A stretch of DNA of 37,197 nucleotides from Microcoleaceae cyanobacterium (lineage in GTDB: Bacteria > Cyanobacteriota > Cyanobacteriia > Cyanobacteriales > Microcoleaceae): the NCBI GenBank assembly GCA_051652765.1, contig JBOFUV010000032.1, forward strand, positions 1 to 37,197, given 5' to 3'. A program made the position numbers and the translations under genes. Positions 6,062 through 21,555 of this stretch are shown here, piece by piece (position 1 is the first letter of the stretch; each line of letters opens with the position of its first letter). Under the pieces are notes generated by a model. The model had not been told where the DNA came from, did not search any database, and saw nothing but the letters and a program-made list of their open reading frames with translations.

Positions 6062-6083
6062 TATTTAAACTCTGAGATTTTTG

Positions 6084-6147
6084 TCTTAAAAACTTAACAT
6101 CTTAAAAATTTAATGTCTTAAAAACTTAATTTCTTAAAGATTTAAAA
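6084..6147. repeat. 4 x 16-bp tandem repeat in a divergent promoter region
   Basis: TCTTAAAAACTTAACA / TCTTAAAAATTTAATG / TCTTAAAAACTTAATT / TCTTAAAGATTTAAAA. Confidence 0.85.
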
Positions 6148-6151
6148 TTCA

Positions 6152-6826
6152 ATGCCCTATCAATATATTTTATTCTACAAACCTTACAACGTTCTAAGTC
6201 AGTTTACGGATTGTAATTCTGACCCAGGTTCAGAACAATCAGGTTCTGAACAATCAGGTTCAGAACAACCAGGTTCAGAACAGAGCTTAGGAACCTTGCA
6301 GCGGCAAACGCTAAAAGATTATATTCCAATTCCCGCCGTTTATCCGGTGGGGCGCTTGGATCAAGATAGTGAAGGGTTGCTGTTGCTCACGAACGATACT
6401 CAACTACAACATCGCCTGAGCCACCCCAAGTTCAAGCACCCCCGTACCTACTGGGTTCAGGTCGAACGGATTCCGGATGAAACGGTATTGTCAACGCTGC
6501 GAACTGGAGTGGACATCAAAGGCTATCGAACTCAACCTGCTCAGGTGAAGTTGCTCCCCACTGAGCCACAGTTGCCCCCGCGTGATCCACCAATTCGCTT
6601 TCGCAAAACCGTACCAACGACTTGGCTGGAGATGACGCTAACGGAAGGAAAAAACCGTCAAGTGCGTCGAATGACGGCTGCCGTGGGTTTCCCAACTTTA
6701 CGGTTAGTGCGGGTGGCGATCGCTCACCTCCATTTAACAGGTTTAGAACCAGGGGGCTGGCGAGAGCTAACTCCGGTAGAAATTCGGCAGTTACTGAGGG
6801 TTAAATCCTCACGCAATCAGAATTAG
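6152..6826 (+). CDS. rluE: rRNA pseudouridine synthase, RsuA/RluE family
   Basis: [28 protein letters not shown] (catalytic Asp), [23 protein letters not shown]; contains a 4 x 15-bp in-frame repeat (6224-6283, GSEQ[S/P]). Confidence 0.85.
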
Positions 6827-6845: not shown

Positions 6846-6882
6846 GTTTCAGTCCTGAACACGGGATTTGAGTTTTTGCGAG
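6846..6882 (-). CRISPR. Solitary degenerate type I-D CRISPR repeat downstream of cas2 (no array)
   Basis: Minus strand CTCGCAAAAACTCAAATCCCGTGTTCAGGACTGAAAC: 37 nt, ends in the ACTGAAAC handle typical of cyanobacterial I-D repeats, one mismatch in the stem, shares AAATCCCGT-TTC-GGACTGAAA with the repeat at 16582-16618. Confidence 0.75.
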
Positions 6883-6955: not shown

Positions 6956-7249
6956 TCACAAAACAATCGCACTCTCTTGGCGCGGCTTGTCCGAACCATA
7001 AGTCAGCGTCCGCTTCACCGACCCCGAATCCAACACATAAATTCGCACTGAATCCTCCTGCGACTTCACCAACTTCTCCAACTGCACCTGCAACCGCGCA
7101 AACTGCACCGCCGTCAAAAAACATTCAAACACACTATACTGCGTCCACTTCCCATAACCCGAAAGCATTTTGTGCAGGCGAGTTCGCCGTTTATTCGCCG
7201 CCTTATTATCCGGCAAATCATAAATAATCAGATAAAACAACGTCGTCAT
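6956..7249 (-). CDS. cas2: CRISPR-associated endoribonuclease Cas2
   Basis: YLIIYDLPD, QYSVFEC and DSVRIY motifs; last gene of the cas run. Confidence 0.95.
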   Translation of the reverse strand: MTTLFYLIIYDLPDNKAANKRRTRLHKMLSGYGKWTQYSVFECFLTAVQFARLQVQLEKLVKSQEDSVRIYVLDSGSVKRTLTYGSDKPRQESAIVL

Positions 7250-7495: not shown

Positions 7496-8473
7496 CTATC
7501 GCAACACCAGCGGTTTATACGGCACACCCTCCTGCAAATGCCGACTCAACAGCCGCGCCTGCAACTCAATCGCCCGCCGATAGGTACAGCGATACTCAAA
7601 CACCGGATGCTTAAACTCATCATTCAACTTCTGATCAAACCCCTGAAGAAACTCCTTCCGAGCCCCATCCGTCAACCGATACGCTCCCAAACTCTCATTA
7701 AAATCCTTCAGACTCAACTGTTTCCGGTTTAACATCGACAACACCACACTATCCGCCACCAAAGGTCGAAACTCCTCCATCAAATCCAACACCAACGCAG
7801 GCTGACCATGATGCACCTCATGCAAATAGCCAATATACGGATCTAGCCCTGCTAGATGCACCGCAGCCCTGACTTGAGTTTGCAGCAATCCATAGGCAAA
7901 ACTCAACAGGGAATTCACCGGATCAGTCGGCGGTCGGCGGTTACGCCCGTTAAATCTCCACTCCGAACCAACAATTTTGCCCAAGTGAGCAAAATAATCC
8001 CGCGCCGCCAGCCCTTCCACTCCCCGCACCTGATCCAACGTCTCCTGAGTAGGAACCAGTTTCTTGTGCAACTTCAGCGGATTCTCTGTCTGACCCTGGC
8101 GATACAACACTAAATATTGATTCTGAATCTTAGCCGTGACAATGGCTTTCACCAGTTCCAATCGTTTAGCAACATCGTGATACAACCCATACTGGGCCAG
8201 TCGCAAGGCTCCATTCCGGGACTGCCCCGGCAACGCACTACCCAAATACTTGCCAAAGCTCGACAGATAATGAATCGGCATTCCCAGTTCCAGCGCATAA
8301 ACAAAAGCATCCCCAGTCACCTGCGGATTTCCCATCAGCACCACCTGTTCTACTGTTTGGGCGGGAATCGCTTGTTTCTTCCAGGAGCCATCCTCCTGTT
8401 TGAGCGCAACATTAAAAGCTTCATACGCCTTACTCAGAACTGCTTCTGGTTGCGTAATGTAAAGAATTGACAT
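7496..8473 (-). CDS. cas1: CRISPR-associated integrase Cas1 (I-D type)
   Basis: RGVEGLAARDYF, RRPPTDPVNSLLSFAY, GYLH and DLMEEFRP motifs; ATG at 8473 (MSILYIT) preferred over the upstream TTG. Confidence 0.95.
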   Translation of the reverse strand: MSILYITQPEAVLSKAYEAFNVALKQEDGSWKKQAIPAQTVEQVVLMGNPQVTGDAFVYALELGMPIHYLSSFGKYLGSALPGQSRNGALRLAQYGLYHDVAKRLELVKAIVTAKIQNQYLVLYRQGQTENPLKLHKKLVPTQETLDQVRGVEGLAARDYFAHLGKIVGSEWRFNGRNRRPPTDPVNSLLSFAYGLLQTQVRAAVHLAGLDPYIGYLHEVHHGQPALVLDLMEEFRPLVADSVVLSMLNRKQLSLKDFNESLGAYRLTDGARKEFLQGFDQKLNDEFKHPVFEYRCTYRRAIELQARLLSRHLQEGVPYKPLVLR

Positions 8474-8538
8474 GATTTTTTTCAGTTGAAAACAAGTAAT
8501 TGAAAACAAGTAGTTGAAGACAAGTAAAAGTTGGTGTT

Positions 8539-9120
8539 CTAAGCTCTTTCTGACAAATACCTCACCTCAAATGGCAAACAAATCGACTGCAAACTACAGG
8601 CTTGGCACTTTTTCTTCTGGGTCAGAGGTGGCGGCATCGGACGTTGATCCGCAGAGCGGGCAGCAACAATTGCCAATTCCGTAGCCTGACGCAGTTGATC
8701 GGTAAAGGGAACTTGCTGGCGACGACGATTGGCATGATAAAAAATCTCCCCATAGGCAATGGTTTTCCCTGTCCGTTCCTCTAAACACAACGCTGCTGCA
8801 CAAAGCTGAAAATGATCATTCAAATGTTGTGCCATCCGTCCCTTTTTGTACTCTAGTGGAACCAATTGTCCATGACACTCTTCTACAGCATCAATAATTC
8901 CAGCGACTTGTAGGCGATCGCTCCACACCCACTGTTGCTGACGAATCGTAATTTCTCCTGCTTGAATCACACTGTCTTCATTAATATTTCGATGCAGATG
9001 ATTCCCCAGGATAATATGTTCATTTTCCGCCCATTCTCCTAACACATATTCCAGATAAAAACGGCGGGGACAATATTCCCAAGCATTCAAATAAGCTAGA
9101 GGCAAATAATCTTCAGTCAT
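8539..9120 (-). CDS. cas4: CRISPR-associated exonuclease Cas4
   Basis: YCPRR, GIIDAVE, EYKKG, QLCAAALCLEE and C-terminal CxxCSLxxxC Fe-S cysteines. Confidence 0.95.
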   Translation of the reverse strand: MTEDYLPLAYLNAWEYCPRRFYLEYVLGEWAENEHIILGNHLHRNINEDSVIQAGEITIRQQQWVWSDRLQVAGIIDAVEECHGQLVPLEYKKGRMAQHLNDHFQLCAAALCLEERTGKTIAYGEIFYHANRRRQQVPFTDQLRQATELAIVAARSADQRPMPPPLTQKKKCQACSLQSICLPFEVRYLSERA

Positions 9121-9154: not shown

Positions 9155-10033
9155 TTATTTGAGATGTTTATTAACATTAATTCGCCTGACCATTCCCATT
9201 CCCATCGGGGTTTTCCGCCCAACCCCTGCATATAATGCAAAGTCTGTCAAGGCGTTAATCTGTTGAATAATCACCGGTTCTACTTCTCCTAAAATCTGAA
9301 ACGTAATGTCTCCCAGACACCCAATCAACTTACTACGACTATCCGTTACCATCTCTGTCCGAATATTAAAAAAACTGGGATAAATTGACTCTAAAATTGC
9401 TTCAGAAAATACCCTGTCACTGTATTGATTCCAGCGCCGCAACAAACTCTTGAACACCAATTCTTTAGTGGGCAAAGCACAATCATATTTTGTCAATCGA
9501 AACGTAGTTGGTGTGCAAAATTTTAACTGCAATTGCCGTTCCGTATCTGAAGCCTGTTCAATAATTTGGTCATAGGAAATAAACCCTGCCCAGGGTTGAC
9601 TGGGTTGGGGATTCCCGAAAACACTGGTGACTTGCAATTCTGCACCCCCCAGATGCCAAGGTTGATTGGGATTAAGGCTCAACCACAGATGCATCAACTG
9701 ACTAAACAATCTTTCATCCAATAATGAAACCCGCCACCAACAGGGAGTTCCCGCCGGAATCGGGCGATCCTGCTGGAACTGTAGAACGGAAGCATTCGAG
9801 TTCAGGGAACGCGAATCAGAGCTATTTCGCAAACTCAAATTTCCATTTCTAGCAACTTGCAATGGACTCAAGGTAAATGCCTTATCTACAGATTGCTGAT
9901 GTAAAGTAGCTGACAGATTGGAATCAACAGATTCCACCAGTTCCAAAAACAAGGCGTGAAGATGACGACCACTCAGATGAGCTTTTGAAATGGGCGATCG
10001 CGGTAATAAATTCAGAACCAAACTATAGGGCAT
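9155..10033 (-). CDS. cas6: CRISPR-associated endoribonuclease Cas6
   Basis: GRHLHALF, FTLSPL, FCTPTTF and the C-terminal Gly-rich loop GVGRKTPMGMG. Confidence 0.95.
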   Translation of the reverse strand: MPYSLVLNLLPRSPISKAHLSGRHLHALFLELVESVDSNLSATLHQQSVDKAFTLSPLQVARNGNLSLRNSSDSRSLNSNASVLQFQQDRPIPAGTPCWWRVSLLDERLFSQLMHLWLSLNPNQPWHLGGAELQVTSVFGNPQPSQPWAGFISYDQIIEQASDTERQLQLKFCTPTTFRLTKYDCALPTKELVFKSLLRRWNQYSDRVFSEAILESIYPSFFNIRTEMVTDSRSKLIGCLGDITFQILGEVEPVIIQQINALTDFALYAGVGRKTPMGMGMVRRINVNKHLK

Positions 10034-10072: not shown

Positions 10073-10678
10073 CTAGGCTAACTTTGCTCGAACCGTCGCT
10101 CTCGATTCAATCGTTAGTTCAGGAATCTCTTGCAACTCCTCCTCGCTCAAACAATATTGTTCACAGACCAAACTCAATCGCCTTCCCGGTGTTCTAACCT
10201 CATTCACGGCATGGGTGAGATCCCCCTGAAAAGATACTAATAAATTCGTCTGGGGTTTGATCTGCCCCACCTGTTGACGATGATTTCGTAACACTAATTC
10301 TCCCCCCTCCATCCCTTCAGGCACCTCTACATACAAGACACTCACCCGCAAAGGCGGTTCAATCGTCTTACAATAGGAACGTAGGGAGCGATCAATATGC
10401 GGATCAACCCGCGATCCAGCTTGTAGAATTAAGGGGTTCAAATAAAACGCATTACAAGACGGTTCCAATGCACGCTCTAGATAGGGTTGAAAAAACGGGA
10501 ATTGCTGTTCAACCTGGGAAAGGTGCGATCGCTGAAACACGATAGAAAATCCCTTAGTTCCAATAAAATCCCGGTTAAGGTTATTAGTGGCCAGATAAGG
10601 ACAGGCCAGGATTTTTTCGCGCAATTTGCTCAGATAGCGTTCAGAAAAAGCAGTTGGATAACGTTGAAAATAACTCAC
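10073..10678 (-). CDS. 2OG-Fe(II) oxygenase embedded in the cas operon
   Basis: HxD (PHIDRS), GGEL, distal His (LTHAV) and RxS (RLSLV) of the double-stranded beta-helix dioxygenase fold. Confidence 0.85.
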   Translation of the reverse strand: MSYFQRYPTAFSERYLSKLREKILACPYLATNNLNRDFIGTKGFSIVFQRSHLSQVEQQFPFFQPYLERALEPSCNAFYLNPLILQAGSRVDPHIDRSLRSYCKTIEPPLRVSVLYVEVPEGMEGGELVLRNHRQQVGQIKPQTNLLVSFQGDLTHAVNEVRTPGRRLSLVCEQYCLSEEELQEIPELTIESRATVRAKLA

Positions 10679-10831: not shown

Positions 10832-11539
10832 TTAGTCTCCAAAACAATACTGCATTTGAACCGGAATCTTGAGACCATTCGAATTTTCAACCATATAAGA
10901 TTCTCCTCGCATTTTTACGTTCCGAATCAAACTAACAGGTGGCATATTGATAGTGTCGTAGCTTAAGACCTGATTAGTAAACATGACATCTAGTGGATTG
11001 AGCGGATGAGTACAATCAAACATTGTCTCCGAATTACGCTTGAACTTTACGGGTTGAAAGTCCAACTTTGCTTTACTTGCCCATTTGCCGATCCGTACCC
11101 ACCTAGGTAATTTCAGCTCTCTCTCTGAAATTACAAAGAATTCAAACTGGCTCTCTGGTGCAATTTCCTTAGTTCTGCCAAAGCTTGGAATATTTTGAGC
11201 CATTTTTTCCATCTCAACGTGGTAGTTGTTATTTGCATATTTCCAGGTATTGAGAACTGTTGCGTGATTGAGTGCTTGTGCAGGAGTGACATAGATTTTC
11301 TGCTGATTTAATGGAGTTAAGTGCTCCTTATATCTAGGAATCTGTTCAGCACAAAAATAGCGGTAGGAATACTCATCAGCAACAGTAGTATTAAATCTTG
11401 GATTGTCTACAAGACCTAACACATAGGAAAGAGCATAGTTGTGGAGGATTGGTTCAGTCTCATACAGCCGTCCAATTTCACGGGTAGCAAAATAAAGGCT
11501 GTCATGAAGTTCTAGAATACATCGGTAAATAATTGTCAT
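10832..11539 (-). CDS. cas5: Type I-D Cas5 (Csc1)
   Basis: YFATREIGRLYETEPILHNYAL and PRWVRIGKW; position after csc2. Confidence 0.9.
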   Translation of the reverse strand: MTIIYRCILELHDSLYFATREIGRLYETEPILHNYALSYVLGLVDNPRFNTTVADEYSYRYFCAEQIPRYKEHLTPLNQQKIYVTPAQALNHATVLNTWKYANNNYHVEMEKMAQNIPSFGRTKEIAPESQFEFFVISERELKLPRWVRIGKWASKAKLDFQPVKFKRNSETMFDCTHPLNPLDVMFTNQVLSYDTINMPPVSLIRNVKMRGESYMVENSNGLKIPVQMQYCFGD

Positions 11540-11544: not shown

Positions 11545-12579
11545 TTACTCTGCTGAAGCTGCAGTGGCTTTTTTTCCTCTCTTCTTTCCCTTATCTGTGG
11601 TCGAGAAAATGTATTTCTGAGCATACGCCTCTGATTCTTTATTTGCTTGAATGAGCATTTCTTTTAGTTGCGTTTCATTACTAGTAATCGCTTTCACTTC
11701 TGCCAGTAAAGATTGAAGTGAATCGTCCATAAAATCAGTATGAGGAATGCACTCTTCGTTCATCAATTCCGCGATCGCCTCTTCTGCTGCAATTCGGACA
11801 TGATCTTCATTTAGAGGATCAGGGGCTTGGATTTGATTTCTCTCCATCATCAAGTCATAAATTTTCTGTGTCCATCTGAGATTACTCACGATCTCGCCAT
11901 CAGCAAAAACTACTCCAATTAATTCATTACGAACGCGACCTGTACGAGTGGTTTGTGCTCCGTAGTGGCGAGTTCTCAAGATATTGTTGAACACGTAGAG
12001 GAAGCCTGCTTCTGTTGGATCTTTCAGTGTGACAATACTGGGAAAGAAAACCTGTGGCAAGATATGGTCTTGGCTATTAATACGACTTGTGACCTCTCCT
12101 TGGCGGCTCATTGTTCCGTTTTCAAAGGGAGCATTTAAGGTGAAGTTGAGATGAGAATCATCAAAGGGGGTAATAGAGTAAGCAGTGTCAACTACAACTT
12201 TTGATTTTTCAGAACCAGCATCTCCGATCGCAAATCCATACAAAATGCAATCAGGTGTTGTTTTGCTGAAGTCTACGTTGTAGTCACACTTTTCCCAGTC
12301 GCCAATCTGATAGTTACGGAGTAGTTCTCGTCCTGTTAACCGCTCAGGAGTTGACTGCTTGCGCTTGAACAGTGCTAGGCGGCTGATGATTTTTCGGCTT
12401 TCTGCATTGTCTTTCTGCATCCCTGCGTGAACTCGCGCTCGATTAAGTTCACTATCGGTCTGAAAGAGCGGGTAGGATTCTGTCACTCGGATTGTTACAA
12501 AATGAACATACTTGCCCATTGGTTTGGCAGGAATTTCAGTGTGAAAATGCTTGGCATCGACGGTTTTTAGAAAAGTCAT
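11545..12579 (-). CDS. cas7: Type I-D Cas7 (Csc2)
   Basis: FKRKQSTPERLTGRELLR, DCILYGFAIGD and YGAQTTRTGRVRN. Confidence 0.92.
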   Translation of the reverse strand: MTFLKTVDAKHFHTEIPAKPMGKYVHFVTIRVTESYPLFQTDSELNRARVHAGMQKDNAESRKIISRLALFKRKQSTPERLTGRELLRNYQIGDWEKCDYNVDFSKTTPDCILYGFAIGDAGSEKSKVVVDTAYSITPFDDSHLNFTLNAPFENGTMSRQGEVTSRINSQDHILPQVFFPSIVTLKDPTEAGFLYVFNNILRTRHYGAQTTRTGRVRNELIGVVFADGEIVSNLRWTQKIYDLMMERNQIQAPDPLNEDHVRIAAEEAIAELMNEECIPHTDFMDDSLQSLLAEVKAITSNETQLKEMLIQANKESEAYAQKYIFSTTDKGKKRGKKATAASAE

Positions 12580-12613: not shown

Positions 12614-13108
12614 TTAAGCGATCGCTTCGATTTCTTCGGACAGTTCTTCTGGTTCAGGTTGCTGAACTACTTTGCGATCGCGATCGTCCTCTAAGCGGTA
12701 CAGATAATCGCAGGTGTCTCGAATGAGATTAAGTTGAATACCAGCGAGACGAGCGCGATCGCTCTTAAAGGCTCCCTCAAAAATCTCTTTGATAAAGAAC
12801 GTGGCAAAGTCATAAACAGCTTGTCGTTCTTGTTCTGAAGTCAAGGCAGGTTTCCACTTGCCATCTACAAAAATCAGGGTGGGTTTACCTTCTGCGGTTC
12901 TGCGACGAACATTCACCATGAGCTTAGCCAGTCTGGCAGCAACAACGTCTATGAGCGACTCTACATCATTGACTAATGCTTTATCGATTTTCAGAATTAC
13001 GTCTGCTGCTTCGTCAATTGGTTTAAGTACCGCATTGGGCTTGGCATACTGACTCTTTGCTCGATAGAATTTCCGATAGCGTTGAGTGAGTTCACGAAGT
13101 TGATTCAT
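12614..13108 (-). CDS. cas11d: Cas11d small subunit from an internal in-frame start in cas10d (164 aa)
   Basis: Minus strand GAAGGAAAAGACATG gives an RBS and in-frame ATG (MNQLRELTQRYRKFY); internal Cas11d translation is established for I-D. Confidence 0.75.
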   Translation of the reverse strand: MNQLRELTQRYRKFYRAKSQYAKPNAVLKPIDEAADVILKIDKALVNDVESLIDVVAARLAKLMVNVRRRTAEGKPTLIFVDGKWKPALTSEQERQAVYDFATFFIKEIFEGAFKSDRARLAGIQLNLIRDTCDYLYRLEDDRDRKVVQQPEPEELSEEIEAIA

Positions 13109-15931
13109 GTCTTTTCCTTCTGAGTCGAAACAATAGTAGAAATCCATGTAAAGCTTGATCTTGGAAATCGGAGGCGAATCCCAATCCAGCTTACGAACTA
13201 ATTTGGTGAGATAGTGAAACACATACAAAGGGCTGGTTTCTAAGTCCCGCGCCAATGCTGCAAGCTTTCCCCAGTCAGGATCGCCATCTTTTTTGCGGTT
13301 TACCTCCAAATGAATACAGTAAGCCGCGCTTAGTGCATTCAGTGGGGAAAATTGATGAGTCGGCACGATCGCATCTAGCCGGGTTCCATCTTTTTCCTGC
13401 TTAGTTAGTGATGCGATCGCTTGATGTACTCCATCTAAAATCGTAGTTTTCTCAAATTCTGCACCACTGATGAACGGTGGTACCGGGGATTCTGAGGTAA
13501 CGATTTTTACATCTAGTACAAGCGGCAACGCCAATGCTAACCAGGCAGGCATCACCCAAGATTCAGTGTCTGTTGCATCTCGTCCTGGCGGAATTGCCAT
13601 AAAGAAGAACGTCATTGGTTGCTTAGTGGGATAGCTTAATTTGAAAGTTTGATCGCGCTCAGCCGCTTCCTGAATCAACAGAGAATCAACCTTCTGATAG
13701 TTCTCAATCGTGAATTTTGCTTCATTCTGATCTGTGACGAGATGCTTGCGAATGTCAGAATCAAAACGAGTTCGTCGAATATAACCGTATGCTTTTTGAA
13801 GAAAGTTATTCGTCTCAGGTGTGAAGAAGTAAGCAGGATACAAGTAGAGATAGCGGTATTTACGTCCTTCAAAGTCTCCTCCAGTTGCATTGGTTTGGTT
13901 CATCAAAATCTGCCTCAGCATGATTTCAACTGACCAGATCGAACAGATTTGCCGCTTTGCTGCCTGTACATTAAATAGGATTTGCCGATTGCTGTAGACT
14001 TGCGGTGCAAATAGCGTTGCTGATTCCATTTGCTCGGTCACAGTATAAGCAGAACTGGACATTGCACAAACATTTTCTCGCCCTCGTCCTGTGGTAATCT
14101 TGGCAGCTTGATAGCGCTTGAGTTCTATCAAGAATGGATCGGTTTCAGGCGATATCACGGCTCCGGTCGGCAAAGTCACAATTCGACTTACATAGGTTCG
14201 CACGTCGTCCCATCCATCTGGTAGTGTAACTTCTTCAATCAAAGGGTTAATCAAGCTAACCGCAACTGTGACCATATCCTCCATGACTTCACGAAGTTGA
14301 GCATCATCTAGTCCAGAATTTTTCTGATTGTGTTGTGCTGCCAAGTAGTACCAATCGAGCGGCACACCTCCTGTATTCTTAAGAGATTGCACGGCTCTCA
14401 AGCCAGGAATTGCATCAGATAAACCTAAATGTTCTGCTAGTTTTTGAGTCAAATCGAATTCAGGCAGGGTTTTACGGCTCGCTTTGGGTTGCTTTTTTTG
14501 ACAATCATTGAAGCGATCACGCCATTCCTGCCAAATTTTCCGGCATAATACATCCCCAAATTCTGCTAAACGATCAATGCGATAGTCATCTCCAAAAGCA
14601 ACATTTAAAGATGCAGGAATGTCTCCATTAGTCTGAGCAGCAACTAAACTTGCACTGCGTTTTGCACCCGATGAAGTTTTAGCAGAATGAAGGATTCGAC
14701 AGGCTGCACTCACGGCAACTTTCATCAGAGATTCAATATCAAAATAAAGCCGATAGTAGTCGGCAAACTTAATTCCTTTGCCATCTCGACTAAATCCAGT
14801 TTGAGTTTCTTTAAGTTTATCGGCACAGAGATGTTTAATCTTATCAACGACTTTGCTGGGAATCAGAGTTGCATCAATTGGAGGGGCATCAGCTTTAGCC
14901 AAATAGACCACACCATCTGGTAGATACAACAGCGGTAGATAAAATTCTTTAGGATGCAGTTCCATCACCGCATTGTTTACAACATTTGTTAAAACGCCGC
15001 GATTATCAGAGAGAGAATGATAACTAAACTTGAATTGGTCTTGACTTAAATTCTGCAAGATAAACGGTAAACTGCCTGCAGACATGGCATCACGAGGATG
15101 TTTGATCACAGACGCAAAGCGATCGGACAATTTCACAAGATTGACAAGAACATTGCGAATTCTGCTGTCTAATCGATCGTCATCTAGCGGCTTCAGTCCA
15201 CGAGTAATTAATCCCAAGTCTGCATCATTCTTGTCGCCTGCATTGCTGCTGATCCAAATGATGTCGTCAATGTAATCTTGCCATTGGTTGCCGAGAAAGC
15301 GATCGAGGTTGAAGTCTAGAATCTTCTGTCTGATATAGTCTCGCCCAAGATTAGGGGCATCGCGTTTATCGGGAGAATCTTTTATCCAATCGCGATCGCA
15401 CAATATTCCACTGATATCATTGGCGCGTAACCAAGTTTTGTAATCCGGGAATTTTTCGTAGTCATGCAAGAGATAGGAAGTGATGTATACTCGACATTGC
15501 AAGTCATTACAATAAGATTTGACTTGATTCTTTTGGATATCTTTCTGTTTTAGGTATCTAAGAATGCGATAGGTTGGAAAAAAGCCATTGAGTAAATGCG
15601 AGAGAAGTGACTGATCACCTGCACTACGCCGACTCAGCTGAGACTTTTTATCCTTTTGGCGTTGCTCAGCAACTCTTGCTTCAATGCGCTCAAAGAATAA
15701 GCCGCCTTTAGCCGTTGCACCTGCAAGCTGCCACATCAAGTTTGGCAAAACAAACTCTGCAAAATCGCTCAGAATTTTATCTTCTGCATTCCCTGGGGAT
15801 TCTTGGATTGCTTGCTTGAATAGCTTAAGTGTCAGTAGTTCTGGGACTTCTGACTGTTCATCATCCTCCCTATCAGCATCAAGGTCTAGTGGCTGATCAT
15901 CCAGTAATAACTCTAACTGTTCATCATTCAT
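12614..15931 (-). CDS. cas10d: Type I-D large subunit Cas10d (Csc3) with N-terminal HD nuclease
   Basis: DQSLLSHLLNG and LHDYEK (HD), DNRGVLTN, LYLPDGVVYL. ATG at 15931 has a GGAG RBS and an ATGA overlap with the upstream stop, so it is preferred over the TTG at 15946. Confidence 0.93.
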   Translation of the reverse strand: MNDEQLELLLDDQPLDLDADREDDEQSEVPELLTLKLFKQAIQESPGNAEDKILSDFAEFVLPNLMWQLAGATAKGGLFFERIEARVAEQRQKDKKSQLSRRSAGDQSLLSHLLNGFFPTYRILRYLKQKDIQKNQVKSYCNDLQCRVYITSYLLHDYEKFPDYKTWLRANDISGILCDRDWIKDSPDKRDAPNLGRDYIRQKILDFNLDRFLGNQWQDYIDDIIWISSNAGDKNDADLGLITRGLKPLDDDRLDSRIRNVLVNLVKLSDRFASVIKHPRDAMSAGSLPFILQNLSQDQFKFSYHSLSDNRGVLTNVVNNAVMELHPKEFYLPLLYLPDGVVYLAKADAPPIDATLIPSKVVDKIKHLCADKLKETQTGFSRDGKGIKFADYYRLYFDIESLMKVAVSAACRILHSAKTSSGAKRSASLVAAQTNGDIPASLNVAFGDDYRIDRLAEFGDVLCRKIWQEWRDRFNDCQKKQPKASRKTLPEFDLTQKLAEHLGLSDAIPGLRAVQSLKNTGGVPLDWYYLAAQHNQKNSGLDDAQLREVMEDMVTVAVSLINPLIEEVTLPDGWDDVRTYVSRIVTLPTGAVISPETDPFLIELKRYQAAKITTGRGRENVCAMSSSAYTVTEQMESATLFAPQVYSNRQILFNVQAAKRQICSIWSVEIMLRQILMNQTNATGGDFEGRKYRYLYLYPAYFFTPETNNFLQKAYGYIRRTRFDSDIRKHLVTDQNEAKFTIENYQKVDSLLIQEAAERDQTFKLSYPTKQPMTFFFMAIPPGRDATDTESWVMPAWLALALPLVLDVKIVTSESPVPPFISGAEFEKTTILDGVHQAIASLTKQEKDGTRLDAIVPTHQFSPLNALSAAYCIHLEVNRKKDGDPDWGKLAALARDLETSPLYVFHYLTKLVRKLDWDSPPISKIKLYMDFYYCFDSEGKDMNQLRELTQRYRKFYRAKSQYAKPNAVLKPIDEAADVILKIDKALVNDVESLIDVVAARLAKLMVNVRRRTAEGKPTLIFVDGKWKPALTSEQERQAVYDFATFFIKEIFEGAFKSDRARLAGIQLNLIRDTCDYLYRLEDDRDRKVVQQPEPEELSEEIEAIA

Positions 15932-16428
15932 AAAGCACTTCTCCAAATTTTTCGTAACTCATCCAGGCAGATCCATTGCCCATCTCGTTTGATCTCGATG
16001 TACTCCCAACCGTTAACAGGACTACCGTTAACTTTCGCTGCTAGGGGACTTGACTTGTCAAATTCCTCGCCGTCGTAAATTATGGTTCCTTTTGGAGAAA
16101 TTTGAATTCCTGAAGTGACATAGCTATAACCAAGATGGTTGGCATTGTCTCGCTTCAATCGAACTCGCACTTGAGTACTTTTTGTAAGCAACCCCTTGTC
16201 GAAAAGCTGCGACATCCTCACATGGGAGTGATTGCCTGAATTTTCAGAATCAATCTGTTCGATTTTAGAACTTTGAATAAACTCAGAATCATTTGGCATA
16301 GGTGGATTAATCTCAAGAGTAGGTCGTTGAATAATTCTGGATTGCGGGGCTTGAAGCCATTTCAACAGTTCGTTGCATAATGCAGTTGGCATTTTCTGTA
16401 AGTCTTGATCGGTCAATTGAATAATCAT
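15928..16428 (-). CDS. RAMA-like (restriction enzyme adenine methylase associated) domain protein, 166 aa, first gene of the Cascade operon
   Basis: C-terminal GTIIYDGEEFDKSSPLAAKVNGSPVNGWEYIEIKRDGQWICLDELR resembles the RAMA pattern; GAGGGG RBS precedes the ATG at 16428; stop overlaps the cas10d ATG. Confidence 0.65.
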   Translation of the reverse strand: MIIQLTDQDLQKMPTALCNELLKWLQAPQSRIIQRPTLEINPPMPNDSEFIQSSKIEQIDSENSGNHSHVRMSQLFDKGLLTKSTQVRVRLKRDNANHLGYSYVTSGIQISPKGTIIYDGEEFDKSSPLAAKVNGSPVNGWEYIEIKRDGQWICLDELRKIWRSAL

Positions 16429-16455
16429 GGGAATCCCCTCTAAAGAGTTTCCACT

Positions 16456-16484
16456 ATTCTGGCAGATTTTTTTAATTTTTGCAA
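16456..16484 (-). promoter_or_regulatory. Predicted sigma70-type promoter of the RAMA-cas10d operon
   Basis: Minus strand TTGCAA-N17-CAGAAT with an extended -10 TG. Confidence 0.55.
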
Positions 16485-16486
16485 TG

Positions 16487-16531
16487 GTTGTCATTAGCAT
16501 ATGAGTAAGCAGTTGTCATGAGCATACGAAT
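16487..16531 (+). promoter_or_regulatory. Two tandem PAM plus protospacer-like sites for the solitary-repeat guide
   Basis: GTT(16487-89)+GTCATTAGCATATGAGT and GTT(16512-14)+GTCATGAGCATACGAAT compared with guide GTCATGAGCATCTGAGT. Confidence 0.75.
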
Positions 16532-16560
16532 AGACCAAAGTGCAAAAATCGTGTTATTCT
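16531..16560 (+). promoter_or_regulatory. Predicted promoter of the CRISPR-like RNA
   Basis: TAGACC-N18-TATTCT with an extended -10 TG; start site expected near 16567. Confidence 0.45.
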
Positions 16561-16566
16561 TCTGTC

Positions 16567-16660
16567 AAGGAGAAAGAACAAAGTTCTACTGTCTAAATCC
16601 CGTATTCGGGACTGAAATGTCATGAGCATCTGAGTTTACTGCTCATTTCCTTTCTCCTCA
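16567..16660 (+). ncRNA. CRISPR-like regulatory RNA (CreR/CreA-like): single I-D repeat (16582-16618) plus self-promoter-targeting guide starting at 16619
   Basis: Repeat AGTTCTACTGTCTAAATCCCGTATTCGGGACTGAAAT with an intact TCCCG-TATT-CGGGA stem and 8-nt handle ACTGAAAT; the guide matches two PAM-flanked sites upstream. Confidence 0.75.
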
Positions 16661-16666
16661 AGCTTT

Positions 16667-18796
16667 CTAGCATATCCATGCAACATTTTCTTTTGGCTTC
16701 TGATGCCAGATTAGGGTTTCTAGCATAAGAGCAGATTGTCCAAACGCAACTGTGTAAGGCGGATTTGAATAATCATCGGTGCGATCGCTCAAGCCATAGG
16801 CTTGAAAGTGCATTGGTAGTCCGAGCTTGCTTCGAAGTATTCCGCGATCACGATCTGACACAAAACAAACCATCCCCCGCTGACTCACTGCTCTCCTCAA
16901 TCGAGTTGGAATATCTGCACCCTCAATCTCCAGTTGCTTCAAAATCTGGACTCTGCCCAATTGTTTTACGGTGCTGAAATCATTCTGTGCATAGTAGAAG
17001 TACCAATTTTCTCGAACCTCTCGGTAATCTTTCAGTTTGAGATAGCATAAAGCGTCTTGGAAACGTTTTTGAGGTAATCCAGCCCCTTGAACTCGTTCCA
17101 AAAATTCATTTTTCTCCATCAAATCAAACACAAAATTGCTCAGAAGTCCCGGCAAATTGTAGGTCTTAAATCGTTCTGGTTCATGCTCTTTCGGATTTGT
17201 TGCATCGTACACCGCACAATCCAACTGGCTACTGCCTCGAAATGAACGTACTTCATCAATAATTTTGTGCTGCTTTTGCTGTAAACAATGATGAACCTGC
17301 CCCCGCCTCTTCGACATTTCAAACCGAAACACATTTTCCGTATCTGTCTTAAAGCCCTCGGCTGCATCGGGATAAGTTGCTTTCATGTGAGTTGAACACA
17401 GTTCATTCCATACACAGAAAGATTGCACACTCCCCCACCGTTTTGGATAATATTCAAACTGATTGGTAAAAGACCAGCTATCATAAACTGCTTGATTGAA
17501 ATAAACGCGATCAAATTCCTCGCTATCTTTCAAGATCTCTTCTTTGTCAAACAACCGGCTCACCAAAAAATTTGGAATTAATGCATACGCCTGATAGGGG
17601 CGAGGTAAAAAATCCGGATGCCTTCCTAATCGTCCAAAGCGTTGAATAAAGTTTCCTGCATCCGAGGCTTCAAATACAAGGAAATTAATCTTAAAGTCAA
17701 CACCAACATCAATTGTTGAGGTTCCAACTAATAAATCTGCTTGGGCAACTGACTGTGATCGCTCCGTTTCACCCGTTAGACTAGTATTCGTTAAAACCTT
17801 AAGATCATGCTGTTCAAATAAAGGTTTAAGTAATCCTGCCAACTTATAGACAGATGCAATTGAGTTGAGAATAATCGCCCCCTTACTACTAGGATGGTCG
17901 AGAAAGAACTTTAGAATAGTCTCTTCGGCGTTTTCCACTAACCATTGATAACTTGCCTTTGCATTCGGTTCTAATTCACTTGGAAAATTTAAAGTAATCG
18001 GCTGGCTAATTGATCGCCAGGTTGCAGTCTCCATAGTTGAGGAAAATCGATATTTGTCTTCAGCAACTGGATCAATTACCTGAAATCTTAAGTTGGCTTG
18101 GCGCAAGAAGTCTTGAAGCGCTTTATTTGGAGTCGCTGACAAAAATAGAAACTTTTTACCGGGCGAAGTGTGTTTCATCAATAAAATTGAGTTCATCACA
18201 CTCGCAATTTGCGGCGAAGAGAAAACATGAAACTCATCAAAAATAAACAGCTTGTATGCCTCATCAATTTTTCTGAAAAGCTTATCTGCGTTATCTCCTT
18301 TGTGTGGCTTCTTAGCACTACGTCTGAGATATCGAAATGAATGAATATAGTGAAAAATATCAGGATTTGTGAGCAATATTTCCGAATTATCTACACGATC
18401 GATAATTCCTTGCTGTTTAGAGGAAAGATTGTTAGTCTCAACAAAGTCCTCAAGTGTTGCACCTGTTAAACGATAGATCTGAGGCTCATACTTTGGCTGA
18501 AATTGATCTTTATAGTTACAAACTTGCCGTTCTTGATCCCGTGCTAATTCATTAGTTGGATACATGGCTAGGGTATAGCTCCGCCCTGTCATGGCTTTAA
18601 GATAAGCGGCCAAACTTTTGCCATCCCCTGTCATTGCAGTGTTAAACACCACATCAATGTTTGGATCGCTCAGAGCATTAAAGGTTTCAACCTGATGCCA
18701 GGAAAGTGTCCAACCTTCAGGCAAATTAACACCTTCAGAGGTTTCTTCCGCAGGGCACGAGTAAACAGGTTTGAGTGTGATGCTATATTCATTCAT
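16667..18796 (-). CDS. cas3: Type I-D helicase Cas3' (no HD domain)
   Basis: AMTGDGKS (Walker A), DEFH, SAT, TSTIDVGVDF and QRFGRLGRH. Confidence 0.93.
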   Translation of the reverse strand: MNEYSITLKPVYSCPAEETSEGVNLPEGWTLSWHQVETFNALSDPNIDVVFNTAMTGDGKSLAAYLKAMTGRSYTLAMYPTNELARDQERQVCNYKDQFQPKYEPQIYRLTGATLEDFVETNNLSSKQQGIIDRVDNSEILLTNPDIFHYIHSFRYLRRSAKKPHKGDNADKLFRKIDEAYKLFIFDEFHVFSSPQIASVMNSILLMKHTSPGKKFLFLSATPNKALQDFLRQANLRFQVIDPVAEDKYRFSSTMETATWRSISQPITLNFPSELEPNAKASYQWLVENAEETILKFFLDHPSSKGAIILNSIASVYKLAGLLKPLFEQHDLKVLTNTSLTGETERSQSVAQADLLVGTSTIDVGVDFKINFLVFEASDAGNFIQRFGRLGRHPDFLPRPYQAYALIPNFLVSRLFDKEEILKDSEEFDRVYFNQAVYDSWSFTNQFEYYPKRWGSVQSFCVWNELCSTHMKATYPDAAEGFKTDTENVFRFEMSKRRGQVHHCLQQKQHKIIDEVRSFRGSSQLDCAVYDATNPKEHEPERFKTYNLPGLLSNFVFDLMEKNEFLERVQGAGLPQKRFQDALCYLKLKDYREVRENWYFYYAQNDFSTVKQLGRVQILKQLEIEGADIPTRLRRAVSQRGMVCFVSDRDRGILRSKLGLPMHFQAYGLSDRTDDYSNPPYTVAFGQSALMLETLIWHQKPKENVAWIC

Positions 18797-18944: not shown

Positions 18945-19856
18945 ATGAGCCAAAAAGGACGATCAATCACACTGTCGATTTCCGAACAGGACAAACAGGA
19001 ACTCGAAGCCCTTGCCCTGGAATTTGGCAAAACCTGGGGCGATCGCCCAAATATCTCCAAGCTAATCGAAGCGATCGCTCGGCGTAAACTGGTGATTGCG
19101 CCCAACCAGGGTTGGAGTGCAGAGCGAATTCAGGTGTTGAACCGCGCCAGAACAGCTCTAGTTGATATGGGTGAACTGCAAATGGCCCTGGCCATTACCG
19201 ACCTGTTGCTGGAGCGCAGTGAGCTGACCCTACCGTTGAGGAATGAATTAGAGCAATTCCTCGCCAGACCGATTGCCCCTTGGCGTTTGCAAATTGATCG
19301 CTATCTTCGCCAACAGCAACCCTTTCAACTTTCTTATCAAGACTCGGCAGAGCGAGTTTGGGAATTTACCATTCATTATGCTGAATTGGCTACCCACGAA
19401 GATCGGCAATATCTGGACTGTTGGTGTGAAGAAACTCAGGGCAATCAGGATTTACCCGAACTCCAACACAATTGGTGCTTGCGGCTAGATCGAATTCAAG
19501 ACGCAGCGCTCGTTTCAACATCGGGAGAGTGGCGACCCGGTTTAGCAACCATTGCAGTGGAATTGCACCTGTTCCGAGGATTGGCTTTTGCCTATCGGAG
19601 TAAAACGGCCCAAGATGAGGTAAATGAGTGGTATCCAGAGATCCCGAATGTGCGGCGGGTGGTTCGTAGAGTGTCCAATACATTTTGGTTGATTCGAGAA
19701 GTTTTGCGCTATGGACAAGACTGCGAAATCATTGCGCCAGAGGTAGTTCGGGAAAAGTTCAGGCAGGAAGTTGCTGTCATGTACCAACGTTACAATCCTG
19801 AGATCGTCAATCTCGAGGACAGTAACTCTATCAATAATGCGGATGAAAGGACTTGA
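18945..19856 (+). CDS. WYL-domain transcriptional regulator with N-terminal ribbon-helix-helix-like region, divergent from cas3
   Basis: SITLSISEQDKQELEALA N-terminus; YLDCWCEE, LRLDRI, REVLRYG. Typical I-D regulator position (Sll7009-like). Confidence 0.88.
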   Translation: MSQKGRSITLSISEQDKQELEALALEFGKTWGDRPNISKLIEAIARRKLVIAPNQGWSAERIQVLNRARTALVDMGELQMALAITDLLLERSELTLPLRNELEQFLARPIAPWRLQIDRYLRQQQPFQLSYQDSAERVWEFTIHYAELATHEDRQYLDCWCEETQGNQDLPELQHNWCLRLDRIQDAALVSTSGEWRPGLATIAVELHLFRGLAFAYRSKTAQDEVNEWYPEIPNVRRVVRRVSNTFWLIREVLRYGQDCEIIAPEVVREKFRQEVAVMYQRYNPEIVNLEDSNSINNADERT

Positions 19857-20001: not shown

Positions 20002-21555
20002 TTATTCATCCTCTGCCCGAACGCCTTGAATAATGCGAGAGAGTTCATTTTTCTCGTTGACTGAAATTCGAGACGGAGAGCCACTGATAATTCGTTCGTA
20101 ATCTCGGAAAGAATCCGTAATGTGAGGCCCTTCAGCGGTAATGGTATACTCTCGAATCCCCTTGTCATGCCAAGATCCGCGCATTTTAAACACATTGAGG
20201 GCACGGGACATTTCTCCCCGAATCTCAACATATTGCAGCATCAAGATCGTGTCGGTAATGGTTGAAATATGGGAATCTGTGATGGAATGAGACCCCATAA
20301 ATTGATCGGTGGTGTTGGTAAAAAACCCCGTAATTTCTTCTTGCTTGGCATATCCAGTTACACCAATCACAAACTGTCGAAAGGCATTGTTGCTTACGCC
20401 CCGCGCCAAAGCAGACAGAGAATCAATCGCAATTCGGGCAGGCTTAAACTCGGAAATCTCTGATTTGATGATTTGCAAGTGATCTTCTAGTCCGGCTGAT
20501 TCGGGATAGGTACAGAGAATCTTGAGCCAGCCTTCCCGTTCCATTCCCTCAAAATCAATCCCCCAAGAGTTGGCATTGCGTAATAGTTGGGCTCGGGATT
20601 CTTCATAGGCAAACAAGATCGCCCGCTGATTATTTTTGCAGGCATCATCCAGGAAGGTACTGACCAGCAGGGTTTTCCCGGTTCCTGTCGCCCCCGTTGC
20701 CAAAATAATTGAATCCTTGAAAAATCCGCCCCCGCACATCGCATCAAGGGTTGCATTACCCGAAGACACCCGAGCATTAGAGGATCGTTGGGTAAGGCGC
20801 ATGGCTCCCAGGGGAAAGATACTAATGCCGTTATTGGTCATCGTAAAGGGGTATTCTCCTTTCATGTGAGTGGTTCCCCGGAGCTTGAGAATTTCCATTG
20901 TACGGCGGCGACGTTCCCCCTCCAGAACGTTGCGAACGATAATAACATTATCTGAAACGAATTCTTCAACTCCGAACCGGGCCACAGAGCCATATTCTGC
21001 CTCTCGCTCCGTTGTCATGATCGTTGTCACGCCGACTTGTTTGAGGCGAGCAACTAACCGAAAAATTTCACGTCTCACGACCCTAGCAGCATCGTACTGT
21101 TGAAAGACTGCCGTCACTGAATCAATAGAGACTCGCTTCGCTTTGTATTTGCGGATGGCGTACTGAATGCGTTCTAATAAGGCCGATAAATCAAAGTTCC
21201 CAACAATATCTTGACCCTCTGGATCAGGGGAAGCATCTAAAATAAATAGTTTTCCCTGATCAATTAACCCCTGTAAATCCCAGTTAAAACTAGAAGCATT
21301 TTTAATGATATCGCTGGGGGATTCTTCAAAGGTAACAAAAATTCCTGGTTCATCAAAATGGGTAATTCCGTTGTAGAGAAATTGAACTGCAAACAGGGTT
21401 TTTCCGGTTCCTGAAGTCCCACTCACTAACGTTGTTCTGCCTACGGGCATTCCACCATGACTAATGTCATCAAATCCCTCAATCATCGTGCGGATTTTCT
21501 GAACACCGATCATTTGGCGTTTGCTCTGTTGCTCGTCTTGACTCGTTTCACTCAT
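20002..21555 (-). CDS. kaiC: Circadian clock kinase/ATPase KaiC
   Basis: Two RecA-like domains (GTSGTGKT, GATGTGKT), phosphosite DSHISTIT and A-loop ERIISGSP. Confidence 0.98.
   Translation of the reverse strand: MSETSQDEQQSKRQMIGVQKIRTMIEGFDDISHGGMPVGRTTLVSGTSGTGKTLFAVQFLYNGITHFDEPGIFVTFEESPSDIIKNASSFNWDLQGLIDQGKLFILDASPDPEGQDIVGNFDLSALLERIQYAIRKYKAKRVSIDSVTAVFQQYDAARVVRREIFRLVARLKQVGVTTIMTTEREAEYGSVARFGVEEFVSDNVIIVRNVLEGERRRRTMEILKLRGTTHMKGEYPFTMTNNGISIFPLGAMRLTQRSSNARVSSGNATLDAMCGGGFFKDSIILATGATGTGKTLLVSTFLDDACKNNQRAILFAYEESRAQLLRNANSWGIDFEGMEREGWLKILCTYPESAGLEDHLQIIKSEISEFKPARIAIDSLSALARGVSNNAFRQFVIGVTGYAKQEEITGFFTNTTDQFMGSHSITDSHISTITDTILMLQYVEIRGEMSRALNVFKMRGSWHDKGIREYTITAEGPHITDSFRDYERIISGSPSRISVNEKNELSRIIQGVRAEDE

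Follow-up and report, generated by a model that had tools for sequence, protein, structure and literature searches.

In CreTA of Haloarcula a toxin is repressed by the CRISPR effector, and in type II systems the scaRNA and the long-form tracrRNA make, by partial pairing, a transcriptional repressor out of a nuclease effector. The latter two work with the class 2 protein Cas9, and their RNA architecture and PAM side differ from those of the type I-D element described here. Experiments have shown that CRISPR effectors regulate themselves through cr-like RNAs in I-B, I-E, I-F, V-A and type II, and for type I-D the published literature that we searched holds predictions only. The CreR of Liu et al. 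(2023; bioRxiv 10.1101/2023.03.10.532045) are cas-regulating RNAs derived from degenerated mini-CRISPRs; the accessible part of that preprint also reports creA-like I-D elements found by hand (their Fig. S7), the I-D case being a prediction there. Elements resembling the I-D repeat, located between cas3 and cas10d and with PAM-flanked targets in cas10d or cargo-gene promoters, are described in the available text of Shmakov et al. (2023; bioRxiv 10.1101/2023.03.03.530964), where a single-repeat (SRU) form is among those treated and scaRNA and long-form tracrRNA are also mentioned.

We have analysed a window of 37,197 nt (the whole contig JBOFUV010000032.1 of a Microcoleaceae cyanobacterium) in which a lone I-D repeat lies between cas3′ and a gene, here called X, that precedes cas10d. 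The first-pass annotation of this DNA had suggested that its two-target I-D instance may be undescribed, which was too strong, as such I-D elements already appear in Shmakov et al. (2023) and creA-like ones in Liu et al. (2023). As portrayed in the text of Shmakov et al. (2023), the I-D elements share with ours the position in the cas3-cas10d gap, the (here predicted) transcription opposite to cas3, a seed beside the better-conserved repeat, partial matches flanked by a canonical PAM in a cargo promoter upstream of cas10d, a mismatch noted at the sixth position, and a variable cargo region rich in toxin-antitoxin genes with “empty” relatives. What differs, in a comparison made without their figures or supplements, is that here one repeat (SRU type) goes with two targets between predicted diverging promoters, that there is a co-varying closing stem with a tail of 37-40 nt, and that a RAMA-domain cargo is strictly linked to the RNA. 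With CreR (Liu et al., 2023, in the part accessible) our element has in common a cr-like RNA of limited complementarity to a cas promoter, a target that adjoins the predicted promoter and a putative autorepression of Cas. However, the CreR experiments concern I-B, I-E and V-A only, whereas ours is an I-D element, CreR genes are mini-CRISPRs with two repeats instead of one, and the first gene that would be regulated here is not a cas gene. In CrePA and CreTA, as the available text of Shu et al. (2024; bioRxiv 10.1101/2024.01.05.574328) presents them, Cascade targets the promoter of a non-cas gene beside the cr-like RNA gene, and RNA and cargo travel together, much as here; but these I-F or I-B systems repress toxins, whereas X, in an I-D locus, has no toxin-family match and is co-oriented with cas10d, which it overlaps. 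New here are the strict linkage between RNA and RAMA gene, the co-varying closing stem and the spacer-sized tail.

The lone repeat and its genomic surroundings

The features on which the argument rests are the following.

9155-10033, minus strand: cas6, the sole cas6 of its family found in the genome
10073-10678, minus strand: inserted gene for a 2OG-Fe(II) oxygenase
10832-11539, minus strand: cas5d/csc1
11545-12579, minus strand: cas7d/csc2
12614-15946, minus strand: cas10d (csc3), large subunit reading the GTN PAM (TIGR03174, 8e-186)
15928-16428, minus strand: gene X, 166 aa, its end overlapping the cas10d ORF
16456-16484, minus strand: predicted promoter of the unit formed by the RAMA gene X and cas10d, read from the sequence
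16487-16506, plus strand: PAM 1 (GTT, 16487-16489) and protospacer 1 (16490-16506), 15/17 match
16512-16531, plus strand: PAM 2 (GTT, 16512-16514) and protospacer 2 (16515-16531), 14/17 match
16540-16568, plus strand: predicted promoter of the cr-like RNA, a conserved block after site 2
16569-16576, plus strand: 5′ arm of the closing stem, GGAGAAAG, pairing with 16650-16657
16582-16618, plus strand: solitary type I-D repeat, with stem-loop (16598-16611) and handle (16611-16618)
16619-16635, plus strand: guide (pseudo-spacer) of 17 nt, GTCATGAGCATCTGAGT, directly after the 8-nt handle
16622-16646, plus strand: hairpin between guide bases 4-10 (16622-16628) and 16640-16646
16650-16657, plus strand: 3′ arm of the closing stem, CTTTCTCC, its end 39 nt after the handle
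16667-18796, minus strand: cas3′ helicase (TIGR03158, 4.1e-89)
18945-19856: WYL/WCX regulator, next to cas3′

Judged by the signatures of Cas10d/Csc3, Csc2 (Cas7d), Csc1 (Cas5d) and Cas3′, the system is a type I-D CRISPR-Cas (TIGR03159 at 2.2e-66 and PF18320 at 1.9e-117, besides the two matches given above), and the Csc2 and Cas6 of this operon are the only ones of their families in the genome. The oxygenase gene was considered as a partner of X and rejected, being missing from all seven related loci. The RNA gene is oriented antisense and convergent to cas3′, and the element follows directly after the cas3′ stop codon.

The repeat consists of a stem (TCCCG, 16598-16602, and CGGGA, 16607-16611) closed by a TATT loop, followed by the 8-nt handle ACTGAAAT (16611-16618), with a predicted Cas6 cut between 16610 and 16611. 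The array repeat of the same genome, present in 30 copies on one contig (C21) and four on another (C82), is identical to it at 23 of the last 25 nt, with the stem unchanged and a single change each in loop and handle, while the first 12 nt have diverged; by this comparison the lone repeat is a true relative of the I-D array repeat. The window holds one copy of it at up to 3 mismatches, and no second, degenerate repeat of the mini-array form was found 3′ of the guide by repeat matching (up to 3 mismatches), by direct-repeat search or by eye; a visual comparison gave 8/37 bases in common between the array repeat and the 37 nt that follow the tail. The element is therefore of the single-repeat (SRU) form. 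No Rfam family was found in 16350-16750 at E values up to 1 besides a chance miRNA match. There is no second repeat to account for the formation of the 3′ end, a counterpoint to the reading as a cr-like RNA. Another lone repeat lies 3′ of cas2 (6846-6882, minus strand), and a GTN-plus-seed target for its guide is absent genome-wide.

The guide, its two targets and their covariation

Between guide and site 1 the mismatches are confined to positions 6 and 12, and between guide and site 2 to positions 12, 13 and 16, so that positions 1-11 are identical. Both sites are preceded by GTT, the DNA of the guide itself by AAT. The first-pass annotation had described the site 1 mismatches, the identity of site 2 at positions 1-11 and these triplets, along with the I-D repeat with its stem, loop and handle and a predicted -35 box (TTGCAA, 16479-16484) lying 2 nt from PAM 1, and every one of these features was seen again when the sequence was re-read. 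Type I-D systems are characterized by a GTN/GTH PAM, an 8-nt handle and the flipping of every sixth base, according to the accessible text of a review (PMC10212523). That the PAM is found beside the targets and is missing from the guide locus is, as far as sequence can tell, what is expected for self-avoidance. The two GTT-flanked sites lie 100-130 bp from the guide, and GTN followed by the seed (positions 1-5 and 7-11) occurs three times in the 5.04 Mb genome, two of these being sites 1 and 2 and leaving a single further occurrence elsewhere. The rest of the window, including the spacer region between the WYL gene and cas3′, has no further copy of the motif.

Among 400 other genomes of the order, 14 have homologues of X, and seven more loci came from named records. 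After dropping three duplicates and two loci without the element (L017 and L021), 17 unique loci were kept, which span at least five families of the order (f1, f15, f18, f29, f33, f36). Repeat, guide and CTCC tail are present in all 17, with the guide copy starting exactly after the 8-nt handle of the Cas6-type repeat. A scan that made no PAM requirement placed the best match of each guide in its own upstream region next to GTT, GTC or GTA in 17/17 loci, on the strand of the guide in 16 of them; in the remaining one (L019) both sites are inverted and still flanked by GTT. The triplet before the guide locus is AAT, AAC or AAA, never GTN. The seeds themselves vary with the lineage (GTCAT, ACTAT, TTTAT, ACTGT, AAGAT, GCTGT, ACGAT), and the targets vary with them. 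Guides compared with their own regions have on average 0.41 mismatches over the 10 seed positions (at most one in every locus), as against 3.49 in cross-pairings of different seed classes (n = 180), and only one of 3400 shuffled regions (17 loci) reached the value of the own-guide match. In one locus (L028), guide position 9 and both of its targets have changed together. The covariation that the first-pass annotation had proposed to look for in homologous I-D loci is thus found in 17/17 of them, and these counts exclude a chance origin of the guide-target matches.

The mismatches are also distributed in a very particular way. Over 34 sites, a count that takes in a spurious second site each in L011 and L023, there are 0-3 mismatches at each of positions 1-5, 28 at position 6, 2-8 at positions 7-11 and 30 at position 12, rising in the distal part to 9-18 at positions 13-17 and 17-29 at positions 18-24. 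The tolerance at positions 6 and 12 that had been noted in this one window is therefore borne out across the 17 loci, and the two peaks are, in sequence terms, a match to the way Cas7 flips every sixth base.

Promoters, fold and the proposed mechanism

The promoter predicted for X has its -35 box TTGCAA at 16484-16479, a 17-nt spacer and a -10-like CAGAAT at 16461-16456. A -35-like TTGnnn box adjoins PAM 1 in 15/15 aligned loci. A consensus scan gave a different candidate on the minus strand, with the -35 box (16494-16489) inside site 1 and the -10 box at 16471-16466; with the conserved candidate, the target sites would lie upstream of the -35 box and not over the core promoter. For the RNA, the candidate consists of the block AAATCGTGT (16546-16554), with TG at 16552-16553, and a -10-like TATTCT (16555-16560). 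The block is kept across loci and followed in most relatives by TATATA-type boxes; the candidate is weak in this window, where the consensus scan listed no plus-strand promoter.

The closing stem co-varies, with GC/AU exchanges in relatives, and the distance from the handle to the end of its 3′ arm is 37-40 nt in 17/17 loci. Within the stem, three pairs of the guide hairpin are also kept in all 17, each with two-sided change. This means that a conserved hairpin keeps guide bases 4-10 paired, which counts against the reading of the RNA as a cr-like guide. We also considered whether the closing stem might hold the Cas6-bound hairpin in trans at the guide's 3′ end, and judged this unlikely, because the 3′ arm is part of the 37-40 nt over which the Cas7 backbone would extend.

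Taking all this together, we consider it probable that I-D Cascade, guided by a cr-like RNA of the CreR/SRU type, represses the promoter from which the RAMA-domain gene X and cas10d would be read. We infer the following course of transcription, processing, loading, binding and repression from the sequence. The RNA would be encoded on the plus strand of the cas3′-X spacer region, antisense to the cas genes, as a precursor of ca. 95 nt with paired ends, which the only Cas6 of the operon would cut at the base of the repeat hairpin to give a 5′ end at 16611. The 8-nt handle with its spacer-sized body of 39 nt would then be loaded into type I-D Cascade. Of the guide, the first 17 bases would pair with both GTT-flanked sites, except at positions 6 and 12. 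Both sites would be situated between two diverging promoters, site 1 abutting the -35 box of the one for X and cas10d-cas7-cas5 and site 2 just upstream of that of the RNA itself. Since pairing ends after ca. 17 nt, Cascade would be expected to bind without triggering cleavage by Cas3′/Cas10d, although we know of no demonstration, for this subtype, of stable Cascade binding through 15-17 bp without cleavage. Bound in this way, Cascade would be both a repressor and a roadblock to read-through from cas3′, and X and the effector genes would be expressed more strongly at any time when free Cascade is in short supply or inhibited.

Gene X and the possible role of the RNA

X starts 59 nt beyond site 1 and has a conserved N-terminal helix, a variable linker and a C-terminal RAMA-like DNA-binding domain. 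A Pfam search with X itself gave no match, sequence searches of the PDB with X alone and with an X profile gave nothing useful, and the match to the CcrM C-terminal domain in NCBIfam is weak (E 0.004). PF18755 is precomputed in 16 of 28 X homologues, and the closest Atlas clusters belong to RAMA. AlphaFold models the C-terminal domain with a pLDDT of 89-93, and its top Foldseek matches are CcrM (6pbd) and the RAMA domain of MPND (7ydt/7ydw), with probabilities of 0.99-1.00, a TM to target of 0.65 and E values of 3e-3 to 4e-2, above the 0.001 line of the tool. On the model, the domain has the RAMA fold, and the family given to this gene in the first-pass annotation stands on that fold match, on the PF18755 hits of the homologues and on the nearest clusters. 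No family match hints at a toxin. As X overlaps cas10d in this window, the two are probably co-transcribed.

The presence of the predicted RNA follows that of X. Within the close Cas10d clade (24 genomes), the lone-repeat RNA is found in 12/12 X-positive and 0/12 X-negative loci, so by its distribution it is tied to X and not to cas10d as such. A covariance model (R1), searched in 151 genomes of the order with the best 25 candidates per genome considered, matched in two (G000 and G050), both X-positive. A crude scan of 16 X-less loci for a handle-like motif with GTN-flanked targets gave no convincing case (3-4 mismatches in 10 at best); one X-less locus (L070) has a repeat-like unit with a weak match to the model (19.3 bits, E 0.14). 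As the RNA occurs only together with X, autoregulation of Cascade may not be its primary purpose, and autorepression may be just a part of its role.

This leads to a different view of the same mechanism, in which the RNA acts at the promoter of X as a guard of the CrePA/CreTA kind, silencing a harmful or defensive X until Cascade is gone or an anti-CRISPR blocks it, the regulation of cas10d being a side effect. Besides the strict linkage, it is in keeping with the cargo hotspot at the cas3′-cas10d junction, where DUF433/DUF5615 (PIN-like) toxin-antitoxin pairs and an XisH/XisI pair are found, with the enrichment of toxin-antitoxin genes behind I-D mini-arrays stated in the text of Shmakov et al. 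(2023) and with the experimentally shown precedent of I-F CrePA, as given in the accessible text of Shu et al. (2024). But RAMA domains are DNA readers (as the top folds CcrM and MPND illustrate) and not known toxins, the overlap of X with cas10d means that derepression would also raise Cascade, which fits autoregulation, and there is one X homologue (that of L017) away from cas3′ and without such an RNA. We regard this view as possible but rather doubtful.

Another explanation would be that the structured element acts as an RNA on the cas strand, either as a terminator or processing site between cas3′ and X-cas10d or as an antisense RNA to read-through transcripts; the guide matches would then be secondary. 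The position right behind the cas3′ stop codon would suit this, and in this window the closing stem with its internal hairpins folds at least as well on the minus strand (-31.8 vs. -26.4 kcal/mol). For the closing-stem duplex alone the plus strand is better in 8/17 loci and the sums are practically equal (-304.8 vs. -304.5 kcal/mol), energies that leave its strand undecided; G-U pairs, at one time taken as proof of the plus strand, were dropped as such. Yet there is no U-tract terminator, the X-less loci of the clade do without the element, and the PAM-flanked co-varying targets and the 6-nt periodicity would be left unexplained, which makes this explanation very unlikely. The three copies of GTCATKAGCAT could also be operators of X, which carries a DNA-binding domain, or of the WYL/WCX regulator (18945-19856) beside cas3′, and the direct-repeat spacing of ca. 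25 bp is typical of operators. In that case it would be a coincidence that one copy follows exactly the handle of the repeat in every locus, that GTN flanks the two targets and never the third copy, that conservation has a period of 5+1+5+1+5 with positions 6 and 12 free and that the inverted sites of L019 keep their polarity towards the PAM; the motif, moreover, has no further copy in the window, not even between the WYL gene and cas3′. We find operators of this sort highly improbable. Finally, a functionless, decaying remnant of a CRISPR array, to which the diverged 5′ 12 nt of the repeat, the missing second repeat and the other lone repeat after cas2 might point, has a negligible chance, being contradicted by a position, length, structure and guide-target match kept in 17 loci of at least five families.

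Returning to the cr-like RNA that would guide Cascade to the promoter of X and cas10d, we can tentatively imagine that RNA and X form one mobile two-part module of the cas3′-cas10d hotspot, in which Cascade silences a reader of modified DNA that is freed only once Cascade has been titrated or lost or an anti-CRISPR blocks it, and this derepression would also boost the Cascade genes. The closing stem and the fixed tail of 37-40 nt would let a single repeat yield a guide of crRNA size. Whatever its purpose, the family provides a clean natural data set, with 17 co-varying loci, a visible 6-nt periodicity, a fixed PAM and one lineage with inverted sites, and it shows precisely which mutations and compensatory swaps a test of RNA-guided repression by I-D Cascade would need. 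The RNA is linked to a RAMA-domain protein, and if this were truly a CRISPR-repressed effector, the idea of CrePA would extend to the I-D systems of cyanobacteria. The module would then be a CrePA-like anti-anti-CRISPR or a back-up of I-D defence with a RAMA effector in place of a classical toxin.

The type I-D locus and its lone repeat

The window is the entire contig C32 of a 5.04 Mb genome in 158 contigs, and its minus strand encodes a type I-D operon, in which a gene with a RAMA-like domain (here gene X) lies between cas3' and cas10d.

Features of the type I-D locus
18945-19856 (+), WYL/WCX regulator, divergent to the operon
16667-18796 (-), cas3'
16582-16618 (+), lone I-D repeat of 37 nt, 23 of its last 25 bases as in the array repeat
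16515-16531, site 2, preceded by GTT, guide mismatches at positions 12, 13 and 16
16490-16506, site 1, preceded by GTT, guide mismatches at positions 6 and 12 only
15928-16428 (-), gene X, 166 aa
12614-15946 (-), cas10d
11545-12579 (-), csc2/cas7d
10832-11539 (-), csc1/cas5d
10073-10678 (-), 2OG-Fe(II) oxygenase, between cas5d and cas6 (Pfam PF13640, E 5.6e-8)
9155-10033 (-), cas6
8539-9120 (-), cas4
7496-8509 (-), cas1
6956-7249 (-), cas2

Csc2 and Cas6 of this operon are the sole members of their families in the genome, and the CRISPR arrays are elsewhere: C21 has 30 repeats and C82 has 4, both arrays lying at contig ends, and C36 has 7 copies of a variant repeat. The oxygenase gene looks like a locus-specific insertion, since it is missing from all seven related I-D loci examined. 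A KaiC-family double-domain ATPase gene (20002-21555, -) adjoins the WYL regulator. The window also has a pair of 67-nt direct repeats, 94% identical and 3.5 kb apart (137-203 and 3683-3749), and several short tandem arrays whose units recur every 22, 16 or 15 nt (3857-4008, 6082-6145 and 6225-6282), all unrelated to the RNA described here.

The last 25 bases of the lone repeat, which resemble the array repeat, span the whole Cas6 hairpin and seven of the eight handle bases, while its first 12 bases have diverged. The 17-nt guide that follows the handle (16619-16635) recurs twice upstream of the repeat, each copy preceded by GTT, and AAT precedes the guide's own DNA. According to PMC10212523, the type I-D PAM is GTN (GTH in Microcystis) and Cas6d cleavage leaves an 8-nt 5' handle. 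The genome has three copies of GTN plus the seed (guide positions 1-5 and 7-11), and sites 1 and 2 account for two of them; on re-reading the sequence, all coordinates and counts of the first-pass annotation for repeat, guide, sites and PAMs proved correct. The only other seed match, also GTT-flanked (contig C71, ~51772, -), is a possible off-target; roughly one such GTT-flanked match is expected by chance in the genome. A second lone I-D repeat lies ~70 nt after cas2 (6846-6882, -), with a stem mutation (CAGGA) and unique flanking sequence on both sides; this contig carries no CRISPR array, and a genome-wide scan found no GTN-flanked seed targets for the sequence downstream of that repeat.

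Conservation of guide, targets and RNA structure

A search of 400 other genomes of the order yielded X homologues in 14, and we added seven loci from named records (Chamaesiphon, Nostoc, Leptolyngbyaceae, Aliterella). Duplicates were dropped (L024 = L010, L029 = L020, L030 = L023), and L017 and L021 were left out, which left 17 unique loci, that of the window among them. In L017 (G366:C335) X is not adjacent to cas3' and the element (repeat, guide and tail) is missing; L021 (G059:C9) lacks a canonical element and has two unlike repeat-like units ~70 nt apart with no clear target. All 17 loci share one layout. Read in + orientation, the start codon of X is followed by a -10-like box, a -35-like box of the form TTGnnn, site 1 with its PAM, site 2 some 25 nt beyond it, a conserved promoter-like block, a GGAGAAAGG-type arm, repeat, guide, hairpin, a CCTTTCTCC-type arm and the cas3' end. 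The Chamaesiphon polymorphus record (L010/L024) has two tandem repeat-like units before the guide, the first one degenerate, and a poorer guide-target match (5-6 mismatches of 15 scored positions).

When each locus was scanned for the best match of its own guide, with no PAM required, this match was flanked by GTT, GTC or GTA in 17 out of 17 cases, and 15 loci had a second GTN-flanked site. Seeds vary among lineages and the targets change along with them: over positions 1-5 and 7-11, guides had 0 or 1 mismatch to their own region (mean 0.41), against a mean of 3.49 in 180 pairings with regions of different seed classes, and 1 of 3400 shuffled regions matched as well as the own value. The guide-target covariation that the first-pass annotation proposed as a check is thus found in the alignment of homologous I-D loci. 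In L019 (G289:C112), where the X homologue is preceded by both sites in reverse orientation with respect to the guide gene, GTT still stands on the PAM side of each.

Mismatched sites among the 34 best GTN-flanked sites (including two spurious second picks, in L011 and L023), by guide position
Positions 1-5: 0, 2, 1, 1, 3
Position 6: 28
Positions 7-11: 2, 6, 4, 8, 5
Position 12: 30
Positions 13-17: 11, 9, 9, 18, 16
Positions 18-24: 17-29

Pairing is thus confined to three 5-nt segments with free bases between them and none beyond, which is the pattern that a Cas7 backbone would impose; in I-D every sixth base is flipped (PMC10212523). That the guide copies are instead operators of a DNA-binding protein is very improbable, as neither the 5+1+5+1+5 pattern nor the absence of GTN at precisely the copy following the handle would be expected of a protein operator.

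For the 17 elements, RNAalifold predicted a 9-pair closing stem and a 3-pair hairpin in which guide bases 7-9 pair with a GGC further downstream. Paired cells reached 93.2% versus at most 66.2% with the partners slid, two-sided changes were seen in six pairs, and none of 500 shuffles reached the observed pairing values, a figure flattered by the structure having come from the same alignment. From handle end to 3' arm end there are 37-40 nt in every locus, which is spacer-sized; this genome's own array spacers measure 34-45 nt (array period, 71-82, less the 37 nt of the repeat). The predicted product (16611-16657) would be 47 nt long, and native I-D crRNAs are of 45 and 39 nt (PMC10212523). Folding energies do not discriminate the strand of the closing stem; repeat polarity and the conserved upstream promoter block point to a + strand RNA. 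Repeat-match and direct-repeat scans of the window found no second repeat in the element region. On the cas strand (16622-16660, -), GAGGAGAAAGG comes immediately behind the cas3' stop and precedes a possible 8-codon ORF, probably not a gene because none of the relatives inspected has an ATG there.

Gene X and the cas3'-cas10d junction

In gene X and its homologues, a variable linker joins a conserved N-terminal helix (~25 aa) to a C-terminal domain of ~95 aa that is likewise conserved. A Pfam search gave no matches for X itself. PF18755 (RAMA) is precomputed on 16 of 28 homologues, the CcrM C-terminal domain is a weak NCBIfam match, the nearest Atlas clusters are RAMA, and the modelled C-terminal domain (pLDDT 89-93) is closest to CcrM and to the RAMA domain of MPND; the RAMA label assigned at first pass therefore holds. 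Our literature search found no paper tying RAMA proteins to CRISPR loci.

Among 401 genomes of the order, 163 have a match to Cas10d residues 101-400, and 24 other genomes make up the close clade, with E no higher than 1e-99. Twelve of these have X, all with the RNA; a covariance model (E up to 1) detected it in none of the 12 X-less loci, where the stretches scanned all cover the whole cas3'-cas10d junction. By this distribution the RNA belongs with X. X-less junctions hold a DUF433 + DUF5615/PIN-like pair, remnants of it or almost nothing (L049, L053), and in several X-positive loci such a pair, or XisH/XisI, sits between X and cas10d.

Cargo at the junction
L035, L038, L041: DUF433 + DUF5615/PIN-like, between X and cas10d (L035 ORFs by Pfam, others by eye)
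L046-L048, L052, L056: DUF433 + DUF5615/PIN-like, between cas3' and cas10d (by eye from similar translations)
L037: XisH/XisI pair (Pfam matches)

Given these varied contents, the junction is therefore a cargo hotspot, exactly as described for an I-D Cas3 clade (Shmakov 2023, bioRxiv 10.1101/2023.03.03.530964).

Proposed regulation and its place among known systems

The repeat-guide element is genuine and very probably has a function. The RNA-guided Cascade repression proposed at first pass is backed by strong comparative evidence from the loci, from which we infer its function. The + strand RNA would be cleaved by Cas6 and taken up by I-D Cascade, which would then bind both PAM-flanked sites through ~15 paired bases, by analogy with CreA/CreR too few to lock a full R-loop and recruit Cas3'. 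Bound Cascade would repress the promoter of X-cas10d-cas7-cas5 and should also stop read-through from cas3'. Site 1 adjoins the conserved -35-like box. On the + strand, site 2 is followed after a few bases by the predicted promoter block of the RNA, which may thus limit its own expression too; the layout would be one of two diverging promoters.

Systems of this kind, among them an I-D form whose cargo lies in the cas3-cas10d gap, are already in print (Shmakov 2023), and the element is a single-repeat variant of them that introduces no new principle. CreR-type autoregulation of Cascade has been shown for I-B, I-E and V-A, with I-D elements found by hand (Liu 2023, bioRxiv 10.1101/2023.03.10.532045); our literature search found no experimental test of such regulation in I-D. 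Two roles, not mutually exclusive, fit the mechanism: autoregulation of Cascade, resembling that of CreR, and control of a cargo effector, resembling that described for CrePA (Shu 2024, bioRxiv 10.1101/2024.01.05.574328). The strict linkage of RNA and X favours a module centred on X, and co-regulation of the effector is favoured by the fact that X overlaps cas10d in the window.
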